Shown here: positions 3,937 to 54,514 of the stretch, in pieces | Layout of the letters: each line of letters begins with the position of its first letter | Numbering within the stretch: the stretch's first letter is position 1 | Virus record (IMG/VR): IMGVR_UViG_3300021387_000529 | Location: 218,811 to 282,810 of that record | Source: a virus | Taxonomy: Duplodnaviria; Heunggongvirae; Uroviricota; Caudoviricetes | Length of the DNA: 64,000 nucleotides | Strand: one strand, 5' to 3' | Notes under the pieces: generated by a model | Seen by the model: only the letters and a program-made list of their open reading frames with translations | What the model was told of the DNA's origin: nothing | The model's database searches: none | Position numbers and translations under genes: made by a program

Positions 3937-3961
3937 ATATGAATATAGGAGAAGGTAATAA

Positions 3962-4342: not shown

Positions 4343-5559
4343 TTTCCTCCGCCCCTTTGTATTGCTAACTGCCCAACGAGACCGATAGAATTAAGAATTG
4401 GCTTAAGGTCAGTTTCGATCTCAGTTCGTGTTTCTTTCAATACAGCTGGGTCTAGTTGGCCTGCAACGTCAGTCTTACACAAACTACGCAAAATATTGAA
4501 ATTACGTAAAACTTCTGAACGTGCCATTGGGCGAGCAATTGGCTCTAAATCATCAAAGTCAATATCATCCCAGTTAGGTGACCAACACAACCATTTAATG
4601 TTTAAATTGCCACCAATTGTGCTGTAACCACGAGCATATAGTTTTCCATTTTCTTTTACTTTGCTATAATGCTCACGTCTGAAAACATTCAACATTCCTT
4701 GCTGTGCCATTAGAGCATCAACCATATTAGTTTGTGAGTCTGCTGTTCCAACAAAACCTGGTACCATTTTGTTACGATAACGCAAACCACCACCATAACG
4801 GTTTGAGACTGTTCCCATTCTTCCCATAGCCATTTGTCTTTCGCCAAAGAATGAGAATGGGTTCATAGATTGTCCGCCACCTCCTGTTGCTCCACCTGGT
4901 GTACAGTAATATGGCACGCAACCATATGCATTCTCTGGAAACTCAATGTCGAATGCATTTCCCTGAGCAATATTGCCATATCCCTCTTCACGGATAATTG
5001 GTCTGAATGTATAGTATCTTTGCATTGCAGGCCTAATCATATATTTTACAATCTGTTCTTTTGAATATTCAATATCTTCAAAATTGGCGAATGGGAAACC
5101 AATAATTGTCAAAATTGTTTCAAGTTCATCATCACTGATATTTATTCCGCCATAAGCTGCAACTTTTGTGAGATAGCCTTCTTCTATTGAAGTGTATGGA
5201 ATGAAATTATTATCTGGCAAAAATCCACCATTCCATTTTGCTGGCAAAATACCAAAATATGGAAGCTGAATGCCTTGAACTGCCGCATGAATACCTTCAA
5301 CATCATCTGCTGTCAGTTCATCCCATCTGATTGGAAACTTCGTTTTATTGTCAACACGATAGTCTTCTTGAATATAAACAATTTTATTATGAAGCGGAGC
5401 TCCTGAAACACGTGTTCCATCTAAAGACGCATCAACACGAACGACTGAGCCACGATTGTATATCTTTGTATTCTTATCAACAGTAACCTGTCCTAAAGCA
5501 TTCCAAGTATTCAAAATTTCTTCTTCAGAAGATTGCAATAAATATTTAAACTCATCCAT
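4339..5559 (-). CDS. putative virion structural protein (406 aa, Gly-rich segment), late class
   Basis: Monocistronic minus-strand gene. The ACTAATT box sits 5 nt upstream of the ATG (gacatAACTAATTttatt-ATG) with no Shine-Dalgarno site. The size is compatible with a capsid-type protein, but no fold could be assigned from sequence. Confidence 0.55.
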   Translation of the reverse strand: MDEFKYLLQSSEEEILNTWNALGQVTVDKNTKIYNRGSVVRVDASLDGTRVSGAPLHNKIVYIQEDYRVDNKTKFPIRWDELTADDVEGIHAAVQGIQLPYFGILPAKWNGGFLPDNNFIPYTSIEEGYLTKVAAYGGINISDDELETILTIIGFPFANFEDIEYSKEQIVKYMIRPAMQRYYTFRPIIREEGYGNIAQGNAFDIEFPENAYGCVPYYCTPGGATGGGGQSMNPFSFFGERQMAMGRMGTVSNRYGGGLRYRNKMVPGFVGTADSQTNMVDALMAQQGMLNVFRREHYSKVKENGKLYARGYSTIGGNLNIKWLCWSPNWDDIDFDDLEPIARPMARSEVLRNFNILRSLCKTDVAGQLDPAVLKETRTEIETDLKPILNSIGLVGQLAIQRGGGN

Positions 5560-5576
5560 AATAAAATTAGTTATGT
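5560..5576 (-). promoter_or_regulatory. late-class ACTAATT box immediately upstream of ATG 5559
   Basis: One of at least 14 start-proximal AACTAAWT boxes. Here it also forms an inverted repeat AATTAGT-N8-ACTAATT. Confidence 0.45.
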
Positions 5577-5706
5577 CATACTAATTGTTTATATCACTTG
5601 AGGAATTAGCTTGTTGTCCTCAGCCTTGAATAATATTGATAGGCGATGCAGTAGCATTTTATATGGCAATTATAGCAAATCTAACAAACATTAGGAGAAT
5701 TGACAA

Positions 5707-6753
5707 ATGAGAGTTGACACAAACGCTCAGAAACGCGAAGCTCTTGAGAAAAGACTCGCAGAAAAACGCGCTTTGAGAGAAGGCGCTCAGAAGAAAGTTC
5801 CAGCTTATATGAAGAAACCAACAGCAGACAAAACTGAGAAGTTGGAAGAGGGAAAAACAAATGACTTTGACATTGTTCTTAAAAACTTCAAAGCTCATAA
5901 GCTTGCCAAGCTTGGTGAGTCTAAAGTAACATATAAAGAAATTCGTGCACTTCGTGAAGCTGTAAATGAAGCTAACAAGAAAGGTGTAAAATTGGCAGAA
6001 GCAGATGAAAATTTCGCAGCTCCAGCAGCAGACCCAAATGCAGCAGCAGCCGCTCCTGCTCCAGCAGCTGGTGGTGTTTCACCAGATGTTCAGACACAGA
6101 TTCAGTCTCTTCTTTCACAGGTTCAGGCACTTGCACAGGCAGCTGGCGTAAACACAGCAGACTTCGGTGCAGACCCAAATGCTAATGTTCCTGCAGTTGA
6201 TGGAATGGCACAGCCAACAGCAGCTGATGGTGCAGCTCCAGCAGCAGATCCAAATGCTCCTTTGATGGAAGCTGTAAACAAAGCTCGTAAAGCTAACAAC
6301 GGTAAATGTGATGAAGCTACATTTGTAGACCTCAAAGCACAATTTGGTAAAGCATTGGTTGAGAGCCTTGGTGCTACTCGTGACCGCATCGCAATGCGTT
6401 CAGCTAAACTTGACACATTGAATGAGAAGTTTGAAGGTGACTTCGCTTCTGCATATTTTGAGAATGTTGGCTTGAAAGAGGCTATCTCACCAATCGCTGG
6501 TATTCCTTCTGAGAAAGAAGTTGCTAACGGAACAGCTGATGCTGCTAAAGGTTTGGCAAAAGAGTTGAAAACTCCTGTTGCTTGGCCAGACCATCAGATT
6601 ACAGGCGCTCCACTTCAGGGTGAAGGAGCTAAACAGCAGAAAGTTAAGGAATCTACTTCTCCTGTAACTGATGCTTATGTTGAAAATTTCTATGCTCCAA
6701 AACTTTCTCTCGACACAATTCGTGAGTCTATGCAGAGAGGCATTCTCGGCTAA
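5707..6753 (+). CDS. Ala/Pro-rich protein with repeated A(A/P)ADPNA motif (possible head or scaffold-associated; function unknown)
   Basis: 348-aa ORF with Shine-Dalgarno site ttaggagaattgacaaATG. It has an N-terminal charged coiled-coil-like segment, an A/P-rich low-complexity linker with three ADPNA repeats, and a globular C-terminus. Its G+C is locally higher. Confidence 0.6.
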   Translation: MRVDTNAQKREALEKRLAEKRALREGAQKKVPAYMKKPTADKTEKLEEGKTNDFDIVLKNFKAHKLAKLGESKVTYKEIRALREAVNEANKKGVKLAEADENFAAPAADPNAAAAAPAPAAGGVSPDVQTQIQSLLSQVQALAQAAGVNTADFGADPNANVPAVDGMAQPTAADGAAPAADPNAPLMEAVNKARKANNGKCDEATFVDLKAQFGKALVESLGATRDRIAMRSAKLDTLNEKFEGDFASAYFENVGLKEAISPIAGIPSEKEVANGTADAAKGLAKELKTPVAWPDHQITGAPLQGEGAKQQKVKESTSPVTDAYVENFYAPKLSLDTIRESMQRGILG

Positions 6754-13494: not shown

Positions 13495-16400
13495 ATGACT
13501 GACAATAAAGATCCTTACATTTATAATGTTGATAAAAACTCAGATTTTGAACAATTCGCATGGGCTCTTGAAAATTTTGATGTAAAAGCAGCATTCAAAG
13601 ATTTTCTAAATATTGAAAATAACATACAAAAAAGTGATAAAGAAAATAACACAAAAATTTATGATAGTCTCTATAAACAGTTTCTTGATACAAAGTCTTC
13701 AGATCATCTTTCACAATTACAGCTTGATGTTTTAAATTATATTCTTAAATATGAGAACGGAACATATAAAGTTAATGATAAAATCGTAGACATCGAAACT
13801 AACAAGGGTGAAAAGACTTTTACGCTCTATGAGCCAGGATTTTATAAGGTTGAGATTAAAGGACCATCAGGACTTCAATTAAAAAACTCAACAAATCAAT
13901 TTTTATCATCTGGAAAAAATTATGTAGTTTATGAGTCTAAAGATAAAACAACATTTTTTATCATCAATACTAAGTTTGAATACATTTTCCAATATGCTGT
14001 ATCTTCAAATATAAATATTTCATGTGGTGTAGCTGAAGTAAATGACACAAATGTTTTTCTTTTTGAGCAATTTCATGATTATGATCGACCGGTACATAAT
14101 TTTCAGCAATTAATTGAGGTTGATAATTATTTTAATAAATGTGACGTTTATAATGTTAATAAGTCTACTGTATTTGAGTATTTTTCTTTCATAGATGATG
14201 CGTTTGATAAAAACTTTTATTGTCTTAAGACTAATATTGTTTCACAAAGTACAATTTTATCACATGCAGATATAACATACAATCCAACCACATATGTATG
14301 TGGTTTACCAGAAAATGAACGAAGTGAATATCTATCTGGAATTCAAAACGGTTATTATTCTAAAAAAATTTCTGAAAATATGAATATTAACTCTTTGAAA
14401 GAGCTTACTTTCTCTTCATTTTTGAAGTCTGGTGCTGTTTACAATTATAATTATTTGCATGGTGGTGATGGTGGCTCGGTTGTCGCAATTATTAAGCTCG
14501 ATAAAGAAACAACTTTCCAATACAATATTGGAAAGTCTGATGAAGGAAGTTCTACATTTTTAAAGTCATCTAATTATAGTTTCTATGCAGAATGTGGTCT
14601 TAATGCGAATGAAAAAAGTTTTTTAAAGACATCTGACCATATATCAAATGATAGCCTATGCAATTTAAGACTCATCACAGACCATAATTTTAGAGATGAC
14701 GCATCAAAATCTACAACAGACAAAGTAAACTTCCATATTGGAGAAAACTTAGACTATAGCACATATGAAGCCGGTTGCGGAAGAGGCTTTGTTATTATAA
14801 ACAATAATTGTGTTTTTGAGTCTTATGGCGCAGGAGAATATGGCTCAGGCTATAGACTGAATGAATTTAAAAATGCAGTTTATCAACCTCCAAAAAATGG
14901 TTCTATTAAAATAGAATTTCTTGGCTCAAGATATGTTCTTCATAAAAAAGTAAATTTTAGCTCAGACAACAATATTAGAAATAATTTGTATATATGTGAT
15001 GAAGGTCTTCCAATTGGCTGTAAATTTAATTTCCAATCAATGATTACGAATTCTATGTATGGTTGTTTCAAAAATACATATAGCTTCTTGTCTGAAAATG
15101 GAAGACATTTTAACTACATTGGAATTTCTGTTGATACAAAGGAAATTGAAGATAATGTTGTATTAAACTTTGATAACAACTTGAAATATATAAATATCGA
15201 TAAAGAAAATAAAACAATTTTTACACTTCAAAATGACAAAAATCTTTTTGGAACCCTTACTGGATCTGATGGTGAAAGTCTTATGTTAGACACTATTATG
15301 AATGGGTCTTTCAGTTTTTATAATGACCTTTTGTATAATTATAATAAATTTTGTTCAAATGGTCTTTCAGTAAGTATTTCATCATTCTCATCAGAAAGCT
15401 TTGACCTAAAAACATTATTTAAAAACTTTAATAATTTAAATATATTTAATAATGTTGAGTCAATTACACAAGTTGAGTTTTCTTTTGAAAACTCTTTATC
15501 ATTTTCAAAATACACTGACATCTATGGACAAGTCGTATTGCCAGACGTTGATGAGGCTAAGATAGTAAAACTTGAGTACTCTCTTTATAATCATGAAAGT
15601 CCTGTTCCATATGAAAAAGGCCAAAAAATAATTATTCCTTCAAATACTAAAATGTTTTTGAAATTTACATTTAACACTTCAAGGGTAAGACTTGATGAAA
15701 ATCTTACATCATTTCAAGGCTATAAATATTTTTATAGAAAAAATGTAGATTTTGATAATAACTACATAAAAGATGAATATTTTAAAACTAATGGAATAAA
15801 CTTTCAATGTGTTGAATTTATTCCTCAAACATCACAATATTGCAGCGTTTTTATTCAAAAAAATACATATAATTTCTCAATTAGTCCAGACCTTTTTAAT
15901 GAGCTCGACTTAAAAAATTTCTATAATAGAAGTGAGTTTGAAGTTGGAGAAGCTGTTCTTTTACAATTGAACATTAAAAACTATGTTAGAGTTTCAAATT
16001 TAAAAAATTATTATTATAAACAACAGTCAAAAACGATACTTGGTACGCCATTCCCAGCCCCAGATAAAACTTGCCCTTGCTATACATATTTTGATACAAA
16101 TAATATTTTTGAGTCTTTTATTAGATTTGGAAACCTTGAAGACGATAAAAATTTTTGTGACTCTTCAGTTGTAGACCTTTTATCAAGAAAAGGTTTCAAC
16201 AATGTGGCGATTGAAAGCGGCAAAGAAAAAAATTATAATGGCATTGATGTTCTATGCTCAAGAGAAGTTGAAGAAAAAGACTATGAAGGTGATATTACAA
16301 ATAACCCAACTTTAAAAATCACATGTACTGCGTCTGCTTCAAAAGATGAATCTGTCTTTATCTATATCTACATGAAAGAATGCGATATTAAATTAAGACT

Positions 16401-18018
16401 TTCAGCAAATTATAATCCAGGACAAACTATTGCTTGTGTTGAGAACTTGAACTCTGCTTATGTAAGTATATTCAAGAATTACTGCTTTACTATCTTCGGA
16501 GTTGGTGGACCAACTGGAAATGGTGAAAATGGTGGTTTCGGCGAAATGGACGGAACAACTGAGAGTATGCCTGGGTCATTTGGTGGAGATGGCTATAATA
16601 GTGGAAGTGGTGGATGTGGTGGTTCTACTAAAAACATACGGCCTTGGACACATTATTGGGGTGGTTTCGTTCCTACGAATGTCGACCTCCAAGTAGCTGC
16701 TGCAGGTTTTGGAGGATTTCCTGGAAGAGCATTTTTCTCACCTGGGTCTAAAGGTTCTGATGGCCGTTGTTTACTTGGAAATAAGTATCAGTATATCTTT
16801 AAACTTAGAGCGAAAACTTCAGAAAGAGGTGGTCAAAAATTTATAGAAATTTGGAACCCTGGAGAGAAAAAAGTTCCATATTATACAGGAATTCCAATTG
16901 TTGTTTTTACAGAAATTATCAAACATAAAGAAAACTTTATAAAGCCAGTAATTTATATTAAATCTGGAATAAAAGGACTAAGTCATCTAACAGCTGAATA
17001 CCAATTAGATGGCTTAGGTGGTGGTCCTGGACTTCCATCATTTTTAAAAATTATTCATAATAATGATGTTCCTTATGGTAGTAATAACACAGAATTAAAA
17101 TTAATTTCTAAAAAGACAGCTTATGGTGAAATATATTCATATTTTTATGATAATGGTAATTTGTCTATTAGTAATGAAGATGAAAATACTGCTGGAATGT
17201 CTTCTGGAAAGTTAGACTATAAAGATAAAGTTAATGTAGACTCAATGATTTTTGAAGGTGGAATTGCTGGTCAGTGTCACACTAGACAACCAAAAAGAAT
17301 TTCTACTTACCTCACAGTTTGGGGTTGGCCTTCTAATAATAGTAGCGATGATGAAGACAGATTTTCTGACTATTCTCCATTTACATATAATTATTTATCA
17401 GGATATACTGCTTCATATGCTCAAGGAAACAGTCAATTTACTCAAGACTGCAAAGCTAGCCTAAAATTCACATCGTCTGGTTCAGATGATATTAAAGGAT
17501 TTTATACAATAAGTCAAAATTTTACAAGAAATAAACTTACAGATTACCGTCTAAAAGAACTTTTAGGAATTTGCGTTAATGGTAACGATAATGGCACTAG
17601 AACTCGTGGTTCGCTCGTTAAATTTGGATTTAAAGGTTTTGACTCAGAATATTATAGCCTTTTTTGTGATAGTGATACAGGACGTAACTTTGATAATACA
17701 TTTGTATTCACAAATTGTTCGGCTGCATATGGGCTATCTAAAGAGTCAGAAGACGGAGAACAAACAATTGCAGAAAATCTTATGAAATCATTCAACTTTG
17801 TAGGTGAGTCAAATGTTTCAACAGACTCTGGAATCGTAAAAATACAAACATTCAATGATATTAGTGTTGATAAAAACAAAAGTGAAAAAATAAGCTTAGA
17901 GTCATTCTATAAAGGAGAACCAGACAACCATAATAGCCTAATAGATGCTGAAACAAATCCGACATCATTGATCAGTATTAGTACGTCAACCTTTATTCCT
18001 GAACAGCCTTTGGAGTAA
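13495..18018 (+). CDS. large tail protein (fibre or baseplate-associated, putative; 1507 aa)
   Basis: Asn-rich giant ORF with a Gly-rich segment (GGPTGNGENGGFGEMDG...GGDGYNSGSGGCGG). It is divergent from the tape-measure gene and preceded by an AACTAAAT box 7 nt before the ATG, with no Shine-Dalgarno site. Confidence 0.55.
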   Translation: MTDNKDPYIYNVDKNSDFEQFAWALENFDVKAAFKDFLNIENNIQKSDKENNTKIYDSLYKQFLDTKSSDHLSQLQLDVLNYILKYENGTYKVNDKIVDIETNKGEKTFTLYEPGFYKVEIKGPSGLQLKNSTNQFLSSGKNYVVYESKDKTTFFIINTKFEYIFQYAVSSNINISCGVAEVNDTNVFLFEQFHDYDRPVHNFQQLIEVDNYFNKCDVYNVNKSTVFEYFSFIDDAFDKNFYCLKTNIVSQSTILSHADITYNPTTYVCGLPENERSEYLSGIQNGYYSKKISENMNINSLKELTFSSFLKSGAVYNYNYLHGGDGGSVVAIIKLDKETTFQYNIGKSDEGSSTFLKSSNYSFYAECGLNANEKSFLKTSDHISNDSLCNLRLITDHNFRDDASKSTTDKVNFHIGENLDYSTYEAGCGRGFVIINNNCVFESYGAGEYGSGYRLNEFKNAVYQPPKNGSIKIEFLGSRYVLHKKVNFSSDNNIRNNLYICDEGLPIGCKFNFQSMITNSMYGCFKNTYSFLSENGRHFNYIGISVDTKEIEDNVVLNFDNNLKYINIDKENKTIFTLQNDKNLFGTLTGSDGESLMLDTIMNGSFSFYNDLLYNYNKFCSNGLSVSISSFSSESFDLKTLFKNFNNLNIFNNVESITQVEFSFENSLSFSKYTDIYGQVVLPDVDEAKIVKLEYSLYNHESPVPYEKGQKIIIPSNTKMFLKFTFNTSRVRLDENLTSFQGYKYFYRKNVDFDNNYIKDEYFKTNGINFQCVEFIPQTSQYCSVFIQKNTYNFSISPDLFNELDLKNFYNRSEFEVGEAVLLQLNIKNYVRVSNLKNYYYKQQSKTILGTPFPAPDKTCPCYTYFDTNNIFESFIRFGNLEDDKNFCDSSVVDLLSRKGFNNVAIESGKEKNYNGIDVLCSREVEEKDYEGDITNNPTLKITCTASASKDESVFIYIYMKECDIKLRLSANYNPGQTIACVENLNSAYVSIFKNYCFTIFGVGGPTGNGENGGFGEMDGTTESMPGSFGGDGYNSGSGGCGGSTKNIRPWTHYWGGFVPTNVDLQVAAAGFGGFPGRAFFSPGSKGSDGRCLLGNKYQYIFKLRAKTSERGGQKFIEIWNPGEKKVPYYTGIPIVVFTEIIKHKENFIKPVIYIKSGIKGLSHLTAEYQLDGLGGGPGLPSFLKIIHNNDVPYGSNNTELKLISKKTAYGEIYSYFYDNGNLSISNEDENTAGMSSGKLDYKDKVNVDSMIFEGGIAGQCHTRQPKRISTYLTVWGWPSNNSSDDEDRFSDYSPFTYNYLSGYTASYAQGNSQFTQDCKASLKFTSSGSDDIKGFYTISQNFTRNKLTDYRLKELLGICVNGNDNGTRTRGSLVKFGFKGFDSEYYSLFCDSDTGRNFDNTFVFTNCSAAYGLSKESEDGEQTIAENLMKSFNFVGESNVSTDSGIVKIQTFNDISVDKNKSEKISLESFYKGEPDNHNSLIDAETNPTSLISISTSTFIPEQPLE

Positions 18019-20891: not shown

Positions 20892-21230
20892 ATGAAAGAA
20901 AACACAGCACATGTTGGAATTGATAGCGAAATTGACTACAAGATTGGAGACCATATTTTTACAGCAGACTTTGTAGGTGGCGGTGAAAATGAAAGTAAAT
21001 TCGATGTCAAAGAATATGAAATCAAAGATATGAAAAAAATTCTTGGAAAACCAAATTACTATGAAATTGTTGATATTCGTTTTCCAAAATCAGTTATTAA
21101 GTCCGACTTGCAGACTGGCTTCTTCAAATCAGCAAAAGAAGCTGCAAAGGCATTCTTAGACTCAATTGACTTCATTCATGATGAATGCCATAAAGTTTAC
21201 GAAAAAGAATACGGAAAGGATAATGCTTAA
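20892..21230 (+). CDS. hypothetical protein (112 aa)
   Basis: ORF with Shine-Dalgarno site aaggaaggataaaATG, directly downstream of conserved element A. Confidence 0.55.
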   Translation: MKENTAHVGIDSEIDYKIGDHIFTADFVGGGENESKFDVKEYEIKDMKKILGKPNYYEIVDIRFPKSVIKSDLQTGFFKSAKEAAKAFLDSIDFIHDECHKVYEKEYGKDNA

Positions 21231-41918: not shown

Positions 41919-42245
41919 TTAAATAAACTTATCTAATATTACAAAGTCTTTTTTCTCAAAAAAATTTTTAAGAGGAACAAACTTTTTAATTTTAGATTTT
42001 TGAAATACCATAAAAATTGCAATCAGCTTTTGTTGTGTATTTATAGATAAATTTTTTAATAAAGTATAGTTATAAAATTTATTTTTTTCTAAAACACTAC
42101 ACAAGTATAAGAAAACTTTCTCTAATAGCTCATCATAATACCCATGAAAAGCATTACATTTAATGATATTTTGCAGAGCTAAATTTATATAATTTAACTC
42201 TGCATTGTCAGACTCTAACTCAAAATTAGTTTCCAGTTCCGTCAT
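41919..42245 (-). CDS. doubtful ORF in a very AT-rich gap (108 aa from the ATG at 42245)
   Basis: Open frame overlapping the giant gene stop by 20 nt with no Shine-Dalgarno site. The region has roughly 20% G+C and may be non-coding or regulatory. Confidence 0.25.
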   Translation of the reverse strand: MTELETNFELESDNAELNYINLALQNIIKCNAFHGYYDELLEKVFLYLCSVLEKNKFYNYTLLKNLSINTQQKLIAIFMVFQKSKIKKFVPLKNFFEKKDFVILDKFI

Positions 42246-45200
42246 CTGGTGGTGCGGCTTCTTCTGAGCGTTCTCCAATTGTGGCATCAATCTCTCCTTT
42301 TCTATATGCTTCTCCTAAAGAAGCAAGGCTAGTTTTAATTATTGGTTCAGCTAAACCTACTTCTGGGACCCAGTTACCATTAGGCAGATTTGCATATAAC
42401 GTTTCATCAATAAAATATTGAAGACTCATATTTTCAAGTAAGAATTCTTTCCATGCTGCAAAGTCTAATACTTTTTCAGTTATTGATGAACTTAGCTCAA
42501 CATTCATGTCTTCTCGTCCTTCTGTAGTAATAGTAAAATAGCCTGGAGCAGCAATTTCTTCACTTAAATACGGTTTAAATATTCTTGGCTTTTCAGGCCA
42601 GACTCTAATATTTGGAATAACAAAATAGTTTCTCTTGTATTCATTCAATTTATATTTGTGCGTTCCATTATCCTCATCAAGAACCATACCATATAATTCA
42701 AGATTATATCTTACTGGGTCATTATTTGTTTTTTCTACATCAACAACAATTACAGTGAAAGATGTTATCTCATATTCTTGTCCTTTAAATTTAAGCTTAA
42801 TCGCTCTTGAAGATGTGTCAACAATATTATAACGTGTAAATGATTTTAGCTCGATATTATTTGGAGACTTTGCAACATCAAGTTTAAGTGCTGATGGAGT
42901 AAGCGTATGCTGTAATTCTATGAGCTGTCTAATATTTTCAGAAGAAATCTCGATTTTTGAGTCAGGAATTGGCAATATCTGACCATTTATATATGAGTTA
43001 TCTCTGAACTTAAACTCATTAACAAATGTCGTTTCTTTGAAAATTTGTGGTCTAACATTTTGTGTATTGAACAAATATTCATTAAATTCAGTTTCAAATC
43101 TATCCGCTGCGCATCTTGTAGACTTTTTCAAAATAGGTGAACGAACAAATGCGTCTTTAACTGAGACCAAATTTCTTCTTAAAGGCTTAATATAATACTC
43201 TTTATAAGTATGGTTAAAATCACCTTCTGAATGAACAACAGACTTTTCTGAAGTAATATTATGGTCATGTGTAAAAGGCGTAAACTCTGCTGTTGCAGTG
43301 TTATCCGCATGTGTTTCTTTCCAATTTTCAAAACCAGAATTACCAATGCTTACAGTATGGTTAAATGTTGTCGGTGTAGTTGTAATATTTGATGTGCCTA
43401 AAAGAACATTTGCTGTTGTAGTTTTAAGCTCAATTTTTTGTTTGCTTAGTGTAACTACTGGTTTTGCAGACTCATTATTAGTTAAAGAAGGAGCAGATTT
43501 TGTGCCTTCAGATACTAAGTCGCTTCCTTTTACAGTTATTTTAACAGTCTTATTATTTGCTGTTGGTGAGAATGTCGCTGATATTGTTGGGGCGCTACCA
43601 GCAAGCTTAGCAGCAGTCCAAAGTTTGTTAATTGCGTCTTGAAGATTATTAAGTGTAATTGTTCCTCCAGAAGATACATCAACAGTTGTTGAATACTCTT
43701 TATCAGAAGTGCTAATTCCTTCAAGGAAATTATTAGAATTAAGTCCTAAACCGCTTTTGATGAATTTCTGTTCGCCAACTGTAATACCTGTAACGTATTC
43801 TGCTTTATCACCTTCCAATTTAACAGTCTTAATTACGTCTTCTTTATTTTGAGTAAATCCATACTGGTTTATTGTATGCGCAGACACATTTACAGTTAAA
43901 GACTTTTTATCATCTTTATTGTTATTATTTTCAGTCTTGTCTTCTATATAATGAACATACTGCTTACTTGATTTATCTTCATTGCAACTATCTACGGTAA
44001 CGTGCAATTGTTCTGTCTCACGAGTAGACATTAAAATAGAGTCTTTACTAATTGACGTTTCAACCTCTTGACTTGTATCTCCACCTTGTGAATTTACATC
44101 TTCTGGAATATTATCAGAAATTAAAACGTCATGTTTATATGAAGCAGCTGTAGAGTCGATGTCTTCTGTTAAGTTGCCATCTGTACCGTCACTAAAGAAT
44201 TCTTTTTCAAAGAAATAACCTTCAGTAAAACCACCTTTAGTTGGGTCTAACCAATCAATATCATTATTAAGATATTGGCTTACATATGAGAACTCATCGC
44301 TGAATTCAAATCCTGAAAGAGGCTTTCCAACGTTTTCTGGTTCAAGAACTTCACCAATCTGTGTCACATCTTTGAGTACAGTAGCTATATCTGCATATTT
44401 ATTAATTCTTTCAAAGAGTGTTTTATCAGGTATATGTGAGTCTCTTATATTTTTACTAAATACATTTTTTTCAATAAATGCTCGAACGTCCAAAGACTCT
44501 ATCTTTGCATCATCACCAAAAATAGACATATCATAGTCTTCATGGTCTGAACAAGAAATTATGTCATAATTCCAGCCTCTTTCGAGTGTATCGTCATCTA
44601 CAATTTCAATATGAGTTGTGTCTGTATCAAGCAAATTATATTTTTCAGATGAACTATAAACTTTTTTATCAATATAATCATTGAAATCACAACTATGTTC
44701 TTTTCCATTTCTGTCTACCCAAACAAGGTCATTATTCGCAATAGGTCTTTGCAAATATGGGAATGCTTGTTCATATTCAGATGAAAGTCCTGTAATTCCA
44801 TTTAAGAAACCAAAGAAAAATTTTCTTTTTTCTAAGTCTTTGCCACATGATGCATTGATCTTATTTAAGAAAAGGTTTACACTTGTATGATAAACTGGTC
44901 TTGCTAAACGATATGACAAACTTGACTCATATACACCATCAGCTTTTGCTTCTACTGTATAATGTTTTTTATCATGATAATCTGACCATGATGGGAAAAA
45001 GTTTTTAATGAATTGCTCATTAATTTTATCAGGATGACCAATAAGCTCAATAATTTTTCTAAATTCACTCGAGACATTTGTTACTTCTTCATATCCTTCA
45101 AAAAGAGAATCTACCCATTCTGCATCAATATCAGCTGAGTCAAAGTCACGCTCACGTGTAAGTTTTATTGAAGGGATTAAGTCTATTGAGTCTTTTTCAG

Positions 45201-48200
45201 GATTTTGTCCTGAAAAATGACAATCAGACGTTTGTCCCTTAGTTGGTAAATCAACTGGATGTTTAAGACTTTCTAAGTAAGTATTTATGTCAACATCCAA
45301 TCCGTCTTTAAACATTGGAACTGCAATGTCTGAATAGTCACCATTTGGTATGTCATAATAGATGTAACCTGTTTTTATTCCTTCAATAAAGTCATTATAC
45401 ACTGCAATTTCTTTTTCATAATCACTTTGTGTATATTTTTCTACTTTTTTCTCACCATTTTCGTAAGTTGTCTTGTCTCCTTGTAGTACATTAGTGTACA
45501 CTCCACCTTCGATGTTACCCAAAATTAAGAAGACATAAAGAGCATAAAATTGGATTGGCTCTGTGAGTTCAACAGAGCAAATTTTTCTTGAATATGCAGA
45601 TTTATTCCATCTTTTATATAATTTTGTTACAGTTTCATCTGACCACTCACCAATAATACTTTGATTTGAGAACTTAAATCCAGGGTCTTTTTGTCCAATT
45701 TTTAGTCCATAACCTGTAACAAATCTATCATTGTCAAATTCGAATGCTGAGTAAACTGAGTCAGTGTTTGAGCTATTTGAAAAAACCTGTATATTATCCA
45801 AACTTTTGAATGTTGGTATATTTCCAAAAGTCATATTTATAAATGACGCGATATGCGTTCTTTTCGGATTAAATGTTCCATCGTATCTAAATTGTGCTTT
45901 CATGAAAGACAATTTTATGATAATGTCATAAATTATTCCTTCAAGAGATTGTGGAGCAAAGGTTGCTTTCTGACCTTCATAAGGTGAGCCATCAGAAAAG
46001 AACTTATCAGGCTCATCAGCCATTACAACATATTTTTCACCATTTCCATTATCTACGACATAGTCGCCTGTTGCGTCACTAACACCAAAAATTGTATTAC
46101 CAAAGAAATTTTCTTCAAGTGTTACTCCAGTTCTTTCTTCCCATTTAGGGTCAATATTTATTGGCCATGAGAAAGGTGTTCCTTTATAAATTTCACCTTC
46201 AAAAGGTAAGTCAGTATTATAACCTTTACAGTTTTTTGAAAAAACAATATTTTTTGCTAAAGTAAAACTATATGAGTCATCAGCTCTTGTATAGTTTACA
46301 GGTCTATCGTAACGTGAGTTCATTGTGATGCGTGAACATGCTTTTATAATCTCTTGACATTTATAGTTTATCCATAATTGAGCAAGATGTGATATTCCAC
46401 CAGACTCTTTTAAAATATCTTTTAATTTTAGATTTCCTTTTGAAAAGTCATCATATGCATCTTCAATTGTTTTAAAATTACGTGTTGAAGAAGAAGCACG
46501 TTTTTTGCCATAGTCACTGTAGTTATCAACTAAAAGATTCAATAATAATGACTTAAAACCATTGTTTTCAGCAACAACGTCAAGGCTATCCAAATAGCTA
46601 TCAGTCTTATAGCTAATAAAGCCATTTTCATTCAAAAATTTCAAAAATCTTGAAATTCCTAAATCATCAACATAGTATGATAATTCTGTTTCGACATTTG
46701 CTTCTTTTGAGAATGCGCCAAAATAGTCATATCCGAATAAAAGTCTTTCAATCTTCAAAAGTCTTTCTTCTGTTTCTGTTGCTGCTCTTGACAAAAGTCC
46801 TAAAAATGACTGATAATCAATTCTTGAACGGAGAGACCAACCATCGTTTATTGCTTGCTTTATATCTGCATCAGACTTATCAACTGAAAGCTTATTTGTA
46901 GACTCATTAATTTTACCATTAAAAGTATCATCAAAAATTTTAAAAGAATATCCATTCTCCAAAAAGTCTGAAAGTCTATCTTTAATAATTGAAATTTTTT
47001 CTTTCCCAGATGTTGACTCATTAAAAATAGATGGATATAATACCTTAAAAATTCTTAATGCGCTCTTATCATATTCAACACCATGCTCATTTGTTGTGTC
47101 TTCTGCTGTGAATGACGCTTGGAATTGTGCATTTAATTTTGCAACTGGAACTTCACCAGACAAGTCATATTCCCATGAGATTTTCTTTTCATTCTCTCCA
47201 TCACCGATAATATAATCTTGTGTGAATATTTCTGTGTCAGAGTCTTTTCCACTTATAAGTCTATAAACTACGCCAGCTTTATTTTCACCATCTGTGTGTT
47301 TGAACTCAATACTACTTGAGAGCTCTCTTGTAAATCCAGATGAAGCATTTCCATCATCTTCATTTATATCAACTTTTCCACCGATATAGATTTTATCGCC
47401 TTGAATTACAAGGTTATTTGCTGAGTCAACCAATGGAGTCCATGGATTGAGTGCAGGATATTGATTCAAATAGATTGAGTTATACTGTGTTGGTCTACGA
47501 CGAACTGTTACATATAGCTGAATAGTTTTTTGAGCTTTAGTTCCTATTGGCCAAGTTACACCAAGACAATCTTCATTATTTACATTTTCAGGCTGAGTAA
47601 TCATATAAAGATATGTATTCTTTGACTCAGCTACAACTTGCCATTCAAATCCAGCAAATTTTCCATTTGGAAGCTGCCAAAAACCTGGTGAAATTATTTG
47701 TCCACTTTCTTTTTCCTGAACAATAATGTCATATGCTTCAATGTTCTGTCCATTATTGTCCATATATGCGCCAAGCTGTACAAGATTTGTAATATTTATT
47801 CTGAGGTCAGATGACTCTACTGTTCCGCCTCTAGTTCCAACTTTTTTGTAAGGAATATCCAATTGATAACACTGTTCTGGCCAAACATATGCTTGAGACT
47901 CAGGTGAGCCTTCTTTTGAATACTTTATTTGAGCAGCACATGTTTTACCGTCATCGATTGTATAATAAAGGTCTCTAAATTTCCAATATGTTGGTTTTGT
48001 TTTTGAAAGAATACCAGTTTCAGTATTCTCACCATAGAGTTCCCAGTTGCCTTCATTTACACGAGTGAATGGACCATTTTTATTTTTAGAGAATACAAAA
48101 ATATCTTTTGCATAACAATATGTAAGAAGTGGCGTCCAATCAATAGACTCACCATAAACAGTATGTACAGACTTATCGATTAAACAATATCCAGCATCTG

Positions 48201-49296
48201 TCAAGTTTTCACCAAAAACAGGCTTGATTGTTCCAATCATTTCTGCAGACGCAATAGACTTTGCATAGCGACAATCAACAAGAAATTTGTTTGTTCCGAA
48301 TCCAACACCTACTTTAAACTCGATTGAGTCAGAAGATTCTTCAAAGTCAATGTCTCCATCTTTAATGCAAGCTGTTTTACCAAATGAGCTTGTGCTAAAT
48401 CCAAAATTTCCGCTTACAATTCCGAGTCTTGTGATTGTGATTGTTTTTCCGAGATAGTCTTCTAATGATAATTTTCCATTTTTTGATGGCGCTACAAAAA
48501 CACCAGCAATGTCATTCTTGTCATTTGCTTTTAAAATTGTGTCATTTAAGACAAGAATACCTTTTCCATTTACAATTTTTACAGGAATAATTTTATCATA
48601 GTCAGATGTATTATCTTCTAATGAGATTTCTTGTGTATCTGTAATATCAACTGAAATTTGTGTTGTGTCTACAACACCGCGTACATCACCTGAGAGCTGA
48701 ATTTCAATTAAAATTTTTTGATATTTTTTTAATACTTCTTTTGATGGAAGTGGAGCATCAGCTATACGTCCAATACAGATGATTGTTCCACCATCATAAG
48801 TGGCCTCTGCGAGGTCTATAGTAAGCTCGCCTTTATTTTTATTTGAAACATAGACTGGCTTACCAATGTCTTCATATGTCCATTTAAAAGCATTTCCATC
48901 ATTTGGAGGAAGATAATAGTCTTCTTTACCATAATTTGCAATATCATACTCAATCTGGCCATGTGATTGAACATGTACTTTTTTGTTATCGCCTGCTATT
49001 CCAGGCTCAAGAAGAATACCAACTGAAAATTGATTTACTGATGGGTCAACAACTACAATTGCGCTATCGCCTTGGCCTGAAGCTTCAACTGCAAGTTGAC
49101 TTTCATATCCAACTGCGACTGGTTGTCCTTTTTTAAGTTTGGTTGAACTACCTACCAAATATGTTGAAAGTGGGTTCAACCAATTAGAAGCTGCATCATT
49201 TTTTGAATTATATCTTAATTGGCCATTTTTTCCATTAATCCAGATGTTACCTTCTTTGTAAAGAAGCTCTTGTGGTAAATCAATATTTGCATTCAT
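42226..49296 (-). CDS. giant virion protein (2356 aa; tail or baseplate-associated, putative)
   Basis: Single 7.07-kb ORF with the box ttcatAACTAATTatttaatt-ATG and no Shine-Dalgarno site. No enzymatic motif was recognised. Confidence 0.7.
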   Translation of the reverse strand: MNANIDLPQELLYKEGNIWINGKNGQLRYNSKNDAASNWLNPLSTYLVGSSTKLKKGQPVAVGYESQLAVEASGQGDSAIVVVDPSVNQFSVGILLEPGIAGDNKKVHVQSHGQIEYDIANYGKEDYYLPPNDGNAFKWTYEDIGKPVYVSNKNKGELTIDLAEATYDGGTIICIGRIADAPLPSKEVLKKYQKILIEIQLSGDVRGVVDTTQISVDITDTQEISLEDNTSDYDKIIPVKIVNGKGILVLNDTILKANDKNDIAGVFVAPSKNGKLSLEDYLGKTITITRLGIVSGNFGFSTSSFGKTACIKDGDIDFEESSDSIEFKVGVGFGTNKFLVDCRYAKSIASAEMIGTIKPVFGENLTDAGYCLIDKSVHTVYGESIDWTPLLTYCYAKDIFVFSKNKNGPFTRVNEGNWELYGENTETGILSKTKPTYWKFRDLYYTIDDGKTCAAQIKYSKEGSPESQAYVWPEQCYQLDIPYKKVGTRGGTVESSDLRINITNLVQLGAYMDNNGQNIEAYDIIVQEKESGQIISPGFWQLPNGKFAGFEWQVVAESKNTYLYMITQPENVNNEDCLGVTWPIGTKAQKTIQLYVTVRRRPTQYNSIYLNQYPALNPWTPLVDSANNLVIQGDKIYIGGKVDINEDDGNASSGFTRELSSSIEFKHTDGENKAGVVYRLISGKDSDTEIFTQDYIIGDGENEKKISWEYDLSGEVPVAKLNAQFQASFTAEDTTNEHGVEYDKSALRIFKVLYPSIFNESTSGKEKISIIKDRLSDFLENGYSFKIFDDTFNGKINESTNKLSVDKSDADIKQAINDGWSLRSRIDYQSFLGLLSRAATETEERLLKIERLLFGYDYFGAFSKEANVETELSYYVDDLGISRFLKFLNENGFISYKTDSYLDSLDVVAENNGFKSLLLNLLVDNYSDYGKKRASSSTRNFKTIEDAYDDFSKGNLKLKDILKESGGISHLAQLWINYKCQEIIKACSRITMNSRYDRPVNYTRADDSYSFTLAKNIVFSKNCKGYNTDLPFEGEIYKGTPFSWPINIDPKWEERTGVTLEENFFGNTIFGVSDATGDYVVDNGNGEKYVVMADEPDKFFSDGSPYEGQKATFAPQSLEGIIYDIIIKLSFMKAQFRYDGTFNPKRTHIASFINMTFGNIPTFKSLDNIQVFSNSSNTDSVYSAFEFDNDRFVTGYGLKIGQKDPGFKFSNQSIIGEWSDETVTKLYKRWNKSAYSRKICSVELTEPIQFYALYVFLILGNIEGGVYTNVLQGDKTTYENGEKKVEKYTQSDYEKEIAVYNDFIEGIKTGYIYYDIPNGDYSDIAVPMFKDGLDVDINTYLESLKHPVDLPTKGQTSDCHFSGQNPEKDSIDLIPSIKLTRERDFDSADIDAEWVDSLFEGYEEVTNVSSEFRKIIELIGHPDKINEQFIKNFFPSWSDYHDKKHYTVEAKADGVYESSLSYRLARPVYHTSVNLFLNKINASCGKDLEKRKFFFGFLNGITGLSSEYEQAFPYLQRPIANNDLVWVDRNGKEHSCDFNDYIDKKVYSSSEKYNLLDTDTTHIEIVDDDTLERGWNYDIISCSDHEDYDMSIFGDDAKIESLDVRAFIEKNVFSKNIRDSHIPDKTLFERINKYADIATVLKDVTQIGEVLEPENVGKPLSGFEFSDEFSYVSQYLNNDIDWLDPTKGGFTEGYFFEKEFFSDGTDGNLTEDIDSTAASYKHDVLISDNIPEDVNSQGGDTSQEVETSISKDSILMSTRETEQLHVTVDSCNEDKSSKQYVHYIEDKTENNNNKDDKKSLTVNVSAHTINQYGFTQNKEDVIKTVKLEGDKAEYVTGITVGEQKFIKSGLGLNSNNFLEGISTSDKEYSTTVDVSSGGTITLNNLQDAINKLWTAAKLAGSAPTISATFSPTANNKTVKITVKGSDLVSEGTKSAPSLTNNESAKPVVTLSKQKIELKTTTANVLLGTSNITTTPTTFNHTVSIGNSGFENWKETHADNTATAEFTPFTHDHNITSEKSVVHSEGDFNHTYKEYYIKPLRRNLVSVKDAFVRSPILKKSTRCAADRFETEFNEYLFNTQNVRPQIFKETTFVNEFKFRDNSYINGQILPIPDSKIEISSENIRQLIELQHTLTPSALKLDVAKSPNNIELKSFTRYNIVDTSSRAIKLKFKGQEYEITSFTVIVVDVEKTNNDPVRYNLELYGMVLDEDNGTHKYKLNEYKRNYFVIPNIRVWPEKPRIFKPYLSEEIAAPGYFTITTEGREDMNVELSSSITEKVLDFAAWKEFLLENMSLQYFIDETLYANLPNGNWVPEVGLAEPIIKTSLASLGEAYRKGEIDATIGERSEEAAPPDDGTGN

Positions 49297-49333: not shown

Positions 49334-49714
49334 TTAGCCTTGTTTTTCTTCAATAACAGAAAATTTTAATGGAACAACTGCAGCTTTGCAAATGTCATCT
49401 TTTAGCATTTTATTGTCATCGATAACATCAGCTGGTATAAGCTTTTTTGCAATCAATTGATTTATAAACTCTGGAAAAAACGCCTGAGCCTGCGCAAATG
49501 TTGGAAAAATCTCATTTGAATAAAATGGAAATACAAACTTCTGATTTTCCAATTCTTCTTTCAATAGTTTTGGTGTCTTTTTATGAGCACGCTCATCATA
49601 ATGCTCAAGCTCATTTGCAATTGGCGTGCCATAAAAAATAGCACACTGAAAAAATCCTTCCTGTTTCGGCATTTTGCTCATAATTCTTTCCTTATTGATA
49701 ATATCACTCGACAT
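49334..49714 (-). CDS. hypothetical protein (126 aa) coupled to the chaperonin gene
   Basis: Overlaps the GroEL-like stop by 11 nt. It has no GroES-like mobile-loop signature. Confidence 0.55.
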   Translation of the reverse strand: MSSDIINKERIMSKMPKQEGFFQCAIFYGTPIANELEHYDERAHKKTPKLLKEELENQKFVFPFYSNEIFPTFAQAQAFFPEFINQLIAKKLIPADVIDDNKMLKDDICKAAVVPLKFSVIEEKQG

Positions 49715-51350
49715 TAAACATTCTTCCTGGGTCTACAATTTCATCAAGTGGCTCAATTGACATATTCTTTACGTCTGAAACAACAATAGTGTCAATCGAC
49801 ATAAATTGCTCAGCAATGTTTGAAGAATATATAATTGAGTTCTTTACAACAGTGTATGGGTCAATAATTCCTTTTTCAAGGATGCGCTCAACAGTTGCTG
49901 TTCGTGCATTGAAACCAACATCAGGGTCGTTCAAAATCTGTGGAACAACTGCTACAATTTCAGAGCCAGTTGACTCAATCAATTTCAAAGCTGGAGCACG
50001 AATTGCAGCCATAAATCTCTCATATGCAGTTTTCTGTGGGATAGTCAAGTCTTTTGTATCTTCTGGAGTTGTGCTATATGAAATACGAAGAAGTGAAGTT
50101 CCAGCACCAATCAAAACACCTTCAGCCAAAGAATTACGAACAGCGTTGATTGCGTCTTCATATCTGTCTTTCTTTTCTGAAAGCTCAACTGATGTTAAAG
50201 CTCCAACATAGATTGTTGCAATACCACCTGTAAGGCGAGCGATACGTTCTTTAATTGCATCAATTTGAAATGGCGACTTACCATGAATACAGTCGCCTTC
50301 TTCAGTCAAGCTCTTCAAAAGCTCAATGTGTTTATCAAATTCTTCTTTATTTGTATTTGGGTCAGTGATGATTGTTTCTTTTGCTGTTACATTGATTGCG
50401 CCGCAAGTTCCACAATCTTTAAAAGAATTGAACTCATCAATTTCTTTATCAATACCAATAATTTTTCCAGATGTGATAACAGCAATATCCTGAATATTTG
50501 CCTGAATAGACTCACGTGAAATACCAGGCGCACGAATAAAAACAACATTCTGTGTTACAAGTTTTTTGATATACATTGCAAGAACATCATCACCATATTC
50601 TGGAGCAACAACAAGAATATTTTTTCCGAGAAGTGGCTGCAAAATAAGTGCCAATTTTTCAGAGTCTTCAACAATATCATTAAACAAAATGACTTTTACA
50701 TCATTCAAAATACACTGGTCATTTGCAGAATTGACACATTTTGATGAAATAAAACCTTTATCAAGTTGAAGTCCCTGTTTGATGTCAAGCACAGTTTTTC
50801 CTGTTCGTGACATAGAGTCTGCCATTGAAACAAGACCACCATCACCAATTGAAGTGAATGCTTCAACAACCATATTAGCGATTTCTTCATCACCATTTGC
50901 AGAAACAAGAGCAATATTTCTCATCATTTCTTCTGAGTCAATTGTTTTTTTGTAAGCTTCAAGTTTTTTAAGAACATCTTCACGAGCTTTTTTGTAAGCT
51001 ACACGAAGGTCATTGATGTCAATTCCCTGCATAAGAAGTGAATTAGCTTTATCACACAATGCAGCTGTCAAAATTGTAGTAGATGTTGAGCCATCACCAG
51101 AATGCATATTTGCGCGGTCAGATGCTTCTTTCAAAAGTTTAAGTCCTGTGTCCATACACTCATCCGAAAATTGAAGAATTTTTAAGACTGAAATACCATC
51201 TTTTGTTGATATTGAGTTTGTTCCTTTTGTATAAGAAACAGTACGTCCTCTTGGTCCAAATGTTGATGCTACTGCTCTAGCAGCAAGTTGAATTCCTATA
51301 TTTATCTGAGCTCTTGCTCTTTGTCCAAATATTATACTTTTACCTGCCAT
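49704..51350 (-). CDS. groEL: GroEL-type (Cpn60) chaperonin
   Basis: GPRGRTVSY...TKDGISV...GDGSTSTT...LVVAPEY...GGIATIYVGALTSVELSEKKDRYEDAINAVRNSLAEGVLIGAGTSLL aligns block by block with GroEL ([66 protein letters not shown]). The protein is 548 aa and lacks the C-terminal GGM repeats. Confidence 0.85.
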   Translation of the reverse strand: MAGKSIIFGQRARAQINIGIQLAARAVASTFGPRGRTVSYTKGTNSISTKDGISVLKILQFSDECMDTGLKLLKEASDRANMHSGDGSTSTTILTAALCDKANSLLMQGIDINDLRVAYKKAREDVLKKLEAYKKTIDSEEMMRNIALVSANGDEEIANMVVEAFTSIGDGGLVSMADSMSRTGKTVLDIKQGLQLDKGFISSKCVNSANDQCILNDVKVILFNDIVEDSEKLALILQPLLGKNILVVAPEYGDDVLAMYIKKLVTQNVVFIRAPGISRESIQANIQDIAVITSGKIIGIDKEIDEFNSFKDCGTCGAINVTAKETIITDPNTNKEEFDKHIELLKSLTEEGDCIHGKSPFQIDAIKERIARLTGGIATIYVGALTSVELSEKKDRYEDAINAVRNSLAEGVLIGAGTSLLRISYSTTPEDTKDLTIPQKTAYERFMAAIRAPALKLIESTGSEIVAVVPQILNDPDVGFNARTATVERILEKGIIDPYTVVKNSIIYSSNIAEQFMSIDTIVVSDVKNMSIEPLDEIVDPGRMFNVE

Positions 51351-51402
51351 ATCTTATAATATTAATAGTGCAATGATGAAATTTCTAGAAATTCCCCTAT
51401 TA

Positions 51403-51479
51403 CTATATTATAATTTAAAATCTATAGGGAAGCAGGGATTTGCTTACCCTTTTAAAGATTATTTAAACAGGTAACTAAA
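51403..51479. repeat. conserved intergenic element, copy B (77 nt)
   Basis: Same sequence as copy A apart from the hairpin loop. It lies in the divergent gap between the GroEL start and gene 51505. Confidence 0.8.
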
Positions 51480-51504
51480 AATTCTCATTGTTAATATATT
51501 ATAC

Positions 51505-51845: not shown

Positions 51846-51853
51846 AGGTGAAT

Positions 51854-52960
51854 ATGACAACACTTGAAAATAAAATTCTTGAAGCTCAGGACGCATACTA
51901 CAACGGCACACCAATCATGAACGACATCGAGTTCGATGCTCTCTGGGAACAGTTGAAAAAAGAACAGCCAGACTCTGAAATCCTTCAAGCAGTTGGAGCT
52001 GACCATACTGATGGTTTTGCCAAGGTTGACCATATGATTATTATGGGAAGCCAGAATAAAGCAAAGAATGTTGAAGAGCTCAACGAATGGTATATTTTCA
52101 ACGCCATTGAGCCTGACACAATTGCTCAGTACAAAATGGACGGCATTTCTCTTGAGCTTACATACAAAAATGGTAAGCTTCAGAAAGCTGTAACACGTGG
52201 TGATGGACACACAGGCGATGACATTACAGCAAATGTAAAGAAAATGCAGGGAGTTGTAAAAACTCTCAAGTCAGACTACACAGGCGCAGTTCGTGGTGAA
52301 ATCTTGATGAGCCGCAAAGAAAAAGATGAGTTCTTCCCAGATAAAGCAAACTGCCGCAATGCAGCTTCAGGCGTTGCAAAACGAAAAGATGGCGAAGGTT
52401 GTGAACACCTCGCAGTGGTTGTTTATGATGCCCAGCCTCTTAATATGACTGAGGAAAACTCTTTCAAATATCAGACACTTCTTCAGACTTGGCTTGAAGG
52501 TGAGGGCTTCAAAGTTGCTCCATGGCAGAAAATTGAGCACTTCAGTGCTGAAAAAGCAAAAGAGCTTCTTGACAAAACATTTGATGACTTCGACAACCTC
52601 GAGTTTGATATTGATGGTTTGGTTATCAAACAGAACCGCATTGACGTTAAGGACATTACAACAAACTACCGTCCAAAAACTCAGATTGCTCTTAAGCCTG
52701 AATATGTAAAAGCAACTTCAATTCTTCGTTCAATTGAATGGAGCTTGAAAAATGGAACATTTACTCCGGTTGCTCACTTTGACCCGGTTGAAATCCAGGG
52801 AGCAATTATCGAAAAAGCTTCACTTGGAAATATCTCTCTTATGGAAGATATGGAGATTGAAATTGGACACGAAATAACAGTTGTACGTGCTGGAATGATT
52901 ATTCCAAAAGTTATCAAAGATAACACAACTGGTAAATTTGCTGAAGGTTATGCATTTTAA
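51854..52960 (+). CDS. ligA: NAD-dependent DNA ligase (short, adenylation plus OB-fold form)
   Basis: KxDG motif (AQYKMDGISLELTYKNG) and AVTRGDGHTGDDITANV match the LigA signature TRGDG..GED(V/I)T. At 368 aa the protein lacks the C-terminal zinc-finger, HhH and BRCT domains. The track start is GTG 51848. Confidence 0.75.
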   Translation: MTTLENKILEAQDAYYNGTPIMNDIEFDALWEQLKKEQPDSEILQAVGADHTDGFAKVDHMIIMGSQNKAKNVEELNEWYIFNAIEPDTIAQYKMDGISLELTYKNGKLQKAVTRGDGHTGDDITANVKKMQGVVKTLKSDYTGAVRGEILMSRKEKDEFFPDKANCRNAASGVAKRKDGEGCEHLAVVVYDAQPLNMTEENSFKYQTLLQTWLEGEGFKVAPWQKIEHFSAEKAKELLDKTFDDFDNLEFDIDGLVIKQNRIDVKDITTNYRPKTQIALKPEYVKATSILRSIEWSLKNGTFTPVAHFDPVEIQGAIIEKASLGNISLMEDMEIEIGHEITVVRAGMIIPKVIKDNTTGKFAEGYAF

Positions 52961-54206: not shown

Positions 54207-54464
54207 TTAGTCTTTCTTCGACTGTTTCTTAGCTTCAGCTTCTTTTAGCCATTCAGGTTTTGAAGCTTCTTTACGTTCAGCATCAGCAATCTTTTTCTGG
54301 ATATGGCGTGCATGAACTCTCTTCAAATGTTTCTTTGCAGAAGGCTTAACATAACGTGTCCGTTCCATGTAGTCTGAAAGAATACATTCTTTGTCAATCT
54401 CTTTCTTGAACTTGCGAAGTGCTTTATCAAGAGACATTTTCTCAGTAAGATTGACGGTTACCAT
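54207..54464 (-). CDS. rpsU: ribosomal protein bS21 homologue
   Basis: MVTVNLTEKMSLDKALRKFKKEIDKECILSDYMERTRYVKPSAKKHLKRVHARHIQKK aligns with E. coli S21 ([59 protein letters not shown]), and the protein has a Lys-rich C-terminal tail. The likely start is the ATG at 54464 with Shine-Dalgarno site AAGGA; the track extends to GTG 54500. Confidence 0.8.
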   Translation of the reverse strand: MVTVNLTEKMSLDKALRKFKKEIDKECILSDYMERTRYVKPSAKKHLKRVHARHIQKKIADAERKEASKPEWLKEAEAKKQSKKD

Positions 54465-54514
54465 AAGAATCACCATCCTTAACAGGAGCGGTATACTCAC
54501 TGTTATTTTTTAGA

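Follow-up and report, generated by a model that had tools for sequence, protein, structure and literature searches.

The chaperonin gene and the small gene behind it

The window analysed here, by which we mean the whole stretch of 64,000 nucleotides (nt) at positions 218,811 to 282,810 of the IMG/VR virus record IMGVR_UViG_3300021387_000529 (Caudoviricetes), carries on its minus strand a gene for a group I, GroEL-like chaperonin of 548 amino acids (aa; 49704..51350), followed directly by a gene for a protein of 126 aa (49334..49714). The relation between the chaperonin and this small protein, hereafter the partner, is the subject of this study. A first-pass annotation made from the sequence alone had described the chaperonin as a full-length Cpn60 with conserved adenosine triphosphatase (ATPase) blocks and without a GGM tail, and all of this was borne out. 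The protein belongs to the Pfam family Cpn60_TCP1 (PF00118; E=6.6e-49, 167 bits against a gathering cut-off of 34.3) and matches PHROG 5725, "chaperonin groEL", over residues 2-526 (E=2e-100). Its closest solved structures are those of mitochondrial Hsp60 and bacterial GroEL (E about 1e-66), colinear across residues 4-527, whereas the phage chaperonin structures match it much more weakly (EL gp146, PDB 6tmt, 1e-27; OBP gp246, 6hdd, 1.7e-14). Because the Hsp60 and GroEL matches far outscore those to EL and OBP, we place the protein on the GroEL side of the family, to which its identity is about 27-30% (about 27% to Escherichia coli GroEL). In the residue alignment to E. coli GroEL, whose numbering is used throughout, the ATP/Mg-site residues T30, G32, P33, K51, D52, D87, G88, D398 and D495 are all kept, and the GDGTTT motif reads GDGSTS. 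The C-terminus ends in ...NMSIEPLDEIVDPGRMFNVE and is free of GGM repeats. The gene product is thus a group I chaperonin of full length whose ATP site is intact.

Among isolated phages, every match to this chaperonin has at most 30% identity. Phage chaperonins had been called rare at first pass, which is true in relative terms, as 269 of 50,697 phage records encode one, but not of viromes, where chaperonins are common (PMC5649160).

The chaperonin and partner open reading frames (ORFs) overlap by 11 nt (junction at 49704..49714, minus strand), so that the last 11 nt of the chaperonin gene contain the ATG of the partner. If translation began instead at M12 (nt 49681), which is preceded by the Shine-Dalgarno-like sequence AAGGAAAG, the partner would be shortened to 115 aa and the overlap replaced with a gap of 22 nt; in related loci the junction ranges from an overlap (-12 nt) to a gap (+11 nt). 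Since the two genes share a strand and are closely spaced, and no minus-strand terminator was predicted between the chaperonin, the partner and a 2356-aa ORF beyond it, we infer that their co-transcription is plausible. The overlapping or near-overlapping junction suggests that their translation may also be coupled. An AT-rich intergenic region (51351..51504) lies between the chaperonin gene and a divergent 102-aa ORF on the plus strand and is the presumed promoter region of the pair; a consensus scan gave sites no more numerous than in shuffled sequences.

The partner is a genuine gene rather than a chance ORF, because both near and distant homologues occur in metagenomes. Ten metagenomic clusters were found at 61-98% identity and 26 clusters by a profile search, and an exhaustive HMMER scan of 1.84 billion representatives recovered 94 homologues at E<=0.001, 62 of them at E<=1e-10, with lengths of 61-165 aa. 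The family, as defined here, consists of 94 representatives at 50% identity. None of 95 family members matches Pfam or PHROG beyond noise, and tblastn searches with the partner against the 50,697 phage records returned nothing even at E<=1.

AlphaFold2 runs with 27 and then 95 sequences gave the same confident alpha/beta model, with a mean predicted local distance difference test score of 82 and 86, respectively, and above 90 in the core. The model consists of a long strand (residues 21-31), a partly helical variable insert (32-57), a second long strand (59-70), two helices (73-89) and a third strand (109-116); the insert is missing from family members of 99 aa. No fold match was obtained in PDB or BFVD. 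The top BFVD match, which is non-significant, is an 89-aa protein of PBS1 (AR9-like).

The first-pass annotation had also stated that no GroES adjoins the chaperonin and that the overlapping ORF has no GroES features. Sequence, profile and predicted fold agree on this point: the partner has no Pfam match of any kind at E<=0.1, a hidden Markov model (HMM) of GroES was blank, hhalign against the Cpn10 profile returned a probability of 0.2%, and the predicted alpha/beta fold is not the all-beta barrel with mobile loop of the GroES type. A divergent GroES or a gp31-like protein was ruled out on these grounds.

Linkage of the pair across viral lineages

The partner lies directly downstream of the chaperonin not only in the window but also in the related loci L001-L007, L010-L016, L019, L021/22, L024/25 and L081. 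In seven IMG/VR loci with chaperonins 49-35% identical to that of the window, a partner homologue (34-22% identity) adjoins the chaperonin downstream in all seven. Contigs found from the other side, through homologues of the partner, likewise keep the pair: P0023 (L010-12), P0010 (L013/14), P0006 (L015/16) and P0050 (L021/22), as well as P0070 (L019; profile E=3e-13) and P0108 (L024/25; profile E=2e-6). For P0085, on a contig of 629 bp (L023), the preceding gene fragment ends in the C-terminal tail typical of this chaperonin clade. Altogether, the pair is unsplit in more than 15 independent loci, over which the identity of the chaperonin to that of the window falls from 71% to 30%. As a side observation, the contig listed for P0023, a partner of 99 aa, measures 940,564 bp, compared to 200-375 kb for the others, and could be chimeric, bacterial or from a very large phage.

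As a less biased test, IMG/VR was scanned with an alignment of the clade chaperonins, which yielded 48 usable chaperonin loci. The partner was located directly downstream in 8/8 loci of the clade, including a new one (L081, 33% identity), and in 0/40 of the other chaperonin loci. Furthermore, an HMM of 98 partner sequences found no homologue in the chaperonin surroundings of nine known phages, namely immuto, cr108_1, DAC20, Vibrio K364, an EL-like Pseudomonas phage, AR9, Staphylococcus Machias, Cellulophaga phi40:1 and OBP. Together with the blank tblastn search, this ruled out a partner in the isolated phages. The partner is thus near-obligately linked to its chaperonin clade.

The genes on either side of the pair differ from lineage to lineage. 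They are a ligase and a giant ORF in the window and L015, an SNF2 helicase and a Toprim protein in L013, a ClpP-like protein in L019, an HATPase in L021, and NrdD and SMC in L024. The suggestion, made at first pass, that the small protein could be a novel cofactor or a dedicated substrate has gained support from this pattern, in which the pair is conserved across deeply diverged phages while its neighbours change.

The same pattern bears on the explanation that the small protein has a function unrelated to the chaperonin, for example in host takeover or the inhibition of a host protein, and merely forms a stable operon unit with it. Such a function would agree with the lack of any functional annotation or fold match for the partner, and with the homologue P0099 (L020), which has no chaperonin next to it. 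It is harder to reconcile with a surrounding gene order that is heavily rearranged and yet leaves the pair unsplit down to 30% chaperonin identity, or with the absence of the partner from all 40 chaperonin loci of other clades and from the nine known chaperonin phages. We therefore consider an unrelated function unlikely. P0099 is the sole unlinked family member, with no chaperonin within +-5 kb; it is located at L020 5001..5360 on a Logan contig of 56.9 kb (SRR17543909; profile E=2e-8), where it follows a thymidylate kinase gene.

The pairwise identities of the chaperonins and of the partners co-vary (r=0.84, 78 pairs), which fits joint vertical inheritance.

Small ORFs were also seen beside chaperonins of other groups. 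Directly downstream of another viral chaperonin clade (29% identical, groove 4/7 hydrophobic by the count described below, no GroES detected) is a conserved ORF of about 90 aa (L041 4628..4891; L042 4638..4907) with the invariant motif FNYIDYLEAW..HDCGT. It is unrelated to the partner by hhalign, which ruled it out as a distant homologue, and it may represent a second, independent non-GroES small partner. In the AR9-like phages AR9 (L029 2546..2878, 110 aa) and Machias (L030 2615..2908, 97 aa), a small hypothetical ORF is located directly upstream of the "cofactor-independent" chaperonin, and synteny is otherwise shared. The crAss-like phage cr108_1 (L018) encodes a chaperonin of 494 aa with a mostly kept groove; a 130-aa ORF (3605..3997) ends 4 nt upstream of it and a 92-aa ORF (5460..5738) overlaps its end. 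Both flanking ORFs are unannotated, and the GroES HMM was blank for both.

The apical groove and the search for GroES

In E. coli GroEL, the residues Y199, S201, Y203, F204, L234, L237, L259, V263 and V264 are the sites defined by mutagenesis as binding both the substrate and the mobile loop of GroES. The window chaperonin has F, K, C, A, L, L, I and K at the positions of Y199, Y203, F204, L234, L237, L259, V263 and V264. As a simple groove score, we counted the hydrophobic residues at seven of the E. coli positions (203, 204, 234, 237, 259, 263 and 264). E. coli GroEL scores 7/7, as do two phage chaperonins with a linked GroES, those of Flavobacterium immuto and Bacteroides DAC20, and most other viral chaperonins score 6-7/7; the score is 3/7 in the window and 2-5/7 in the partner-linked clade, in which the hydrophobic groove is not preserved.

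Across the clade, position 203 (Y in GroEL) is occupied by K, Q, E, L, S or V, position 204 (F) in most members by C or S, and position 234 (L) by A, Q, K, H, R, S, M or T, while position 263 (V) has become R, T or K in many members and position 264 (V) K, E or D in most. Positions 199, 201, 237 and mostly 259 are kept. These changes in the partner-linked chaperonins point to the loss of the canonical docking surface for GroES.

In a neighbour-joining tree, the partner-linked chaperonins form a single clade, sister to the canonical GroEL-like group and apart from the GroES-linked phage GroELs, from EL/OBP and from AR9/Machias. The clade comprises more than 364 clusters at 90% identity and is recognized by several hallmarks: an insertion in the helix K-L region of the apical domain, which follows E. 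coli position ~354 and is 6-9 residues long (6 in the window); a proline at position 252 (AP[DE][FY]); a one-residue deletion near position 207; and an acidic C-terminal tail, N-[LMV]-x-[IVF]-E-x-[LM]-D-x-x-[LV]-x-[ED], in place of GGM.

A groES gene elsewhere had been named at first pass as part of what would refute its reading, and none was found in the stretches covered, which are the 64-kb window and +-3-10 kb around its relatives. The GroES HMM, built from four cellular sequences, recovered as a control the annotated GroES of immuto, DAC20, phi40:1 and an Acinetobacter contig (L017, L026, L031, L032). Within the window it returned no GroES; the best match, at 20892..21230, was ruled out as too weak (E=0.11) and without Pfam support. 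Likewise, a Pfam scan of 52 small ORFs of the window gave no Cpn10 among the families at E<=0.014. Around the partner-linked loci (+-3-10 kb, and about 20 kb around seven relatives), the HMM found no Cpn10, and the precomputed Pfam notes of the retrieved partner-linked contigs contain no Cpn10 entries.

These results are relevant to the possibility that the chaperonin uses a host GroES, or a phage GroES encoded outside the 64-kb window, with the small protein being irrelevant to the lid. The window is part of a genome of probably 200-370 kb, in many phages GroES occurs without GroEL or at a distance from it (PMC5649160), and the groove positions 199, 201, 237 and mostly 259 are, as noted, retained. 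However, the contact residues 203, 204, 234 and 264 are largely polar or charged throughout the clade, whereas phage chaperonins with an adjacent GroES keep them, and the window and about 20 kb around the seven relatives yielded no Cpn10. We regard the use of such a GroES as improbable, to a marked degree.

A different group of viral chaperonins from IMG/VR loci of marine type (L043-L062, L073, L074, L078, L080), of about 500 aa, has a methionine-rich and fully hydrophobic groove, LMMLMVM. No GroES was detected within +-3 kb of these genes by the four-sequence HMM, for which their GroES may be too divergent.

A candidate cofactor, its genomic setting and known systems

The explanation that we favor is that the pair is a conserved two-gene functional module of a large clade of uncultivated jumbo phages, and that the small protein serves the chaperonin as a dedicated, non-GroES cofactor. 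This preference is a tentative one, held with slightly less than even confidence. A direct cofactor role is deemed the most likely because the linkage is near-obligate and exclusive, because the junction suggests matched synthesis and because the groove is remodelled. According to this hypothesis, a group I chaperonin, most likely hydrolyzing ATP as read from its conserved nucleotide site, would present a remodelled groove where GroEL binds the mobile loop of GroES. The small alpha/beta protein would be made in step with it through the overlapping or near-overlapping junction and would bind it as a dedicated cofactor non-homologous to GroES, which could form a lid or cap, regulate the ATPase cycle or, as an adaptor, bring in phage clients. 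Both the physical binding and the cofactor role are here inferred from the genomic context. A more specific hypothesis is that the partner is a structurally new co-chaperonin, widespread in uncultivated jumbo phages, in which a non-GroES alpha/beta subunit would dock on the remodelled apical domains and take over lid formation or control of the cycle; we consider this possible but doubtful.

Several observations weigh against the cofactor hypothesis. The groove columns were taken from alignments at about 27-35% identity, in which the groove-flanking blocks GxxxDxG[FY]xS, AP and APG are well anchored, and the neighbour-joining tree that delimits the clade carries no support values. Co-varying identities are what any pair of jointly inherited genes would show, and one homologue, as mentioned, is unlinked. 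Furthermore, the partner has no obvious hydrophobic tripeptide resembling that of a mobile loop. Finally, the chaperonins of EL, OBP and AR9 function in vitro without any cofactor (PMC9598537), and because they do so, a degenerate groove alone does not demand a replacement cofactor.

The chaperonin could thus also work alone, in the manner of EL gp146, OBP gp246 and AR9 gp228, with the small protein as a dedicated client, or an accessory that folds only with its help, sharing the operon for co-expression. Cofactor-independent phage chaperonins are documented (PMC9598537; PMC7185714), their grooves are likewise degenerate (2-5/7), and tight linkage would fit a client relationship equally well. 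On the other hand, a single-domain alpha/beta protein of 99-165 aa that is modelled with confidence is an unlikely obligate client, and none of the known clients of phage-related chaperonins, capsid proteins and endolysins among them, has a gene coupled in this way to that of its chaperonin. The junction, which points to synthesis at 1:1, also suits a subunit better than a client. On balance, we find an autonomous chaperonin with a client at its side rather unlikely.

It had also been proposed at first pass that the chaperonin may fold giant virion proteins, with reference to ORFs of 2356 aa (42226..49296, minus strand) and 1507 aa (13495..18018, plus strand, from the ORF list), neither of which has a Pfam or PHROG match. 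The larger one is on the same strand as the pair and starts 37 nt after the stop codon of the partner, but is located outside the conserved module. A counterpart of 2290 aa directly follows the pair only in the close relatives L015/L016; the gene was found neither in L013 nor in any distant lineage, and tblastn gave no match in L001-L009. Because the synteny is limited to close relatives, a chaperonin dedicated to the adjoining 2356-aa protein was rejected, and the proposed link to giant virion proteins finds no support in gene order beyond these relatives, although the chaperonin may still act on such proteins.

The window as a whole has a G+C content of about 34%, lacks tRNA genes and encodes proteins typical of large phages: a short NAD-dependent ligase, dCMP deaminase, ThyX, thymidine kinase, a radical-SAM protein and ribosomal protein S21, with further matches to an SbcC-like nuclease, a helicase and, weakly, a tape-measure-like protein. 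Among isolated phages, the window has no megablast match and its helicase matches have at most 25% identity. No isolated phage is close, relatives are found on metagenomic contigs of up to 375 kb, and the source is an uncultivated lineage of jumbo phages. The S21 homologue (54207..54500, minus strand; PF01165, E=8e-12) also has counterparts near the chaperonin module in L015/L016. The NAD-dependent DNA ligase homologue (51848..52960, plus strand), of 370 aa in the window and 368 aa in L015/L016, consists of adenylation and OB domains and is without the Zn-finger, HhH and BRCT parts of bacterial LigA. In two relatives, genes for IS605 OrfB/TnpB (Cas12f-like) proteins are located a few kb from the module (L013 3193..4401; L022 7575..8867). 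Their absence from the near-identical sister contigs L014 and L021 suggests recent transposition in these phages.

To our knowledge, all known group I chaperonins use a lid with the GroES fold or, in three giant phages, appear to use none; group II chaperonins have built-in lids. If the cofactor hypothesis is true, the module would represent a third solution to chaperonin closure, beside lids of the GroES type and the built-in lids of group II, and would provide both a new class of cofactor for a well-studied machine and a function for an orphan family of phage proteins. If it is refuted, the module still marks out a fourth phage chaperonin lineage, for which the adjoining gene is diagnostic. 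Group I chaperonins of phages, including ones without GroES, are already known. The novelty here is a separate and abundant clade, set apart by the remodelling of its apical domain and by an obligately linked orphan family without detectable fold relatives; it would become a new cofactor class if binding were demonstrated. How lid-less phage chaperonins encapsulate and release their clients is a problem for which this abundant module offers a concrete candidate.

Viral operons in which GroEL precedes GroES exist (PMC5649160), and the systems of immuto, DAC20, phi40:1 and the virioplankton contigs in that study resemble the window in their full-length group I chaperonin with the same ATP-site residues, in the order of the large and then the small gene and in the tight coupling of the small gene. 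They differ from the window in that its small gene is not a Cpn10, the GroES-binding groove is largely replaced and the GGM tail is missing.

Likewise, the chaperonins of EL (gp146, 6tmt), OBP (gp246, 6hdd) and AR9 (gp228) belong to large phages, have no adjacent GroES and show a degenerate groove, with 2-5 of the seven positions hydrophobic as in the window clade. However, the window chaperonin does not cluster with them; it falls into a separate clade of the neighbour-joining tree that is much closer to GroEL, and their phages are without a homologue of the partner near the chaperonin (HMM) or in the phage records (tblastn). The idea that lid-less phage chaperonins might rely on an "unrelated co-factor" has been put forward explicitly (PMC7185714), and in a limited collection of literature we found no description of a module consisting of such a chaperonin and partner.

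In concept, the closest analogs are T4 gp31 and RB49 CocO, small phage-specific cofactors that replace GroES without recognizable sequence similarity. The gp31 protein retains the beta-barrel fold and mobile loop of GroES and partners the GroEL of the host (PMC6318259). The partner in the window differs from gp31 and CocO in its predicted alpha/beta fold and in being encoded alongside a chaperonin of the phage itself.

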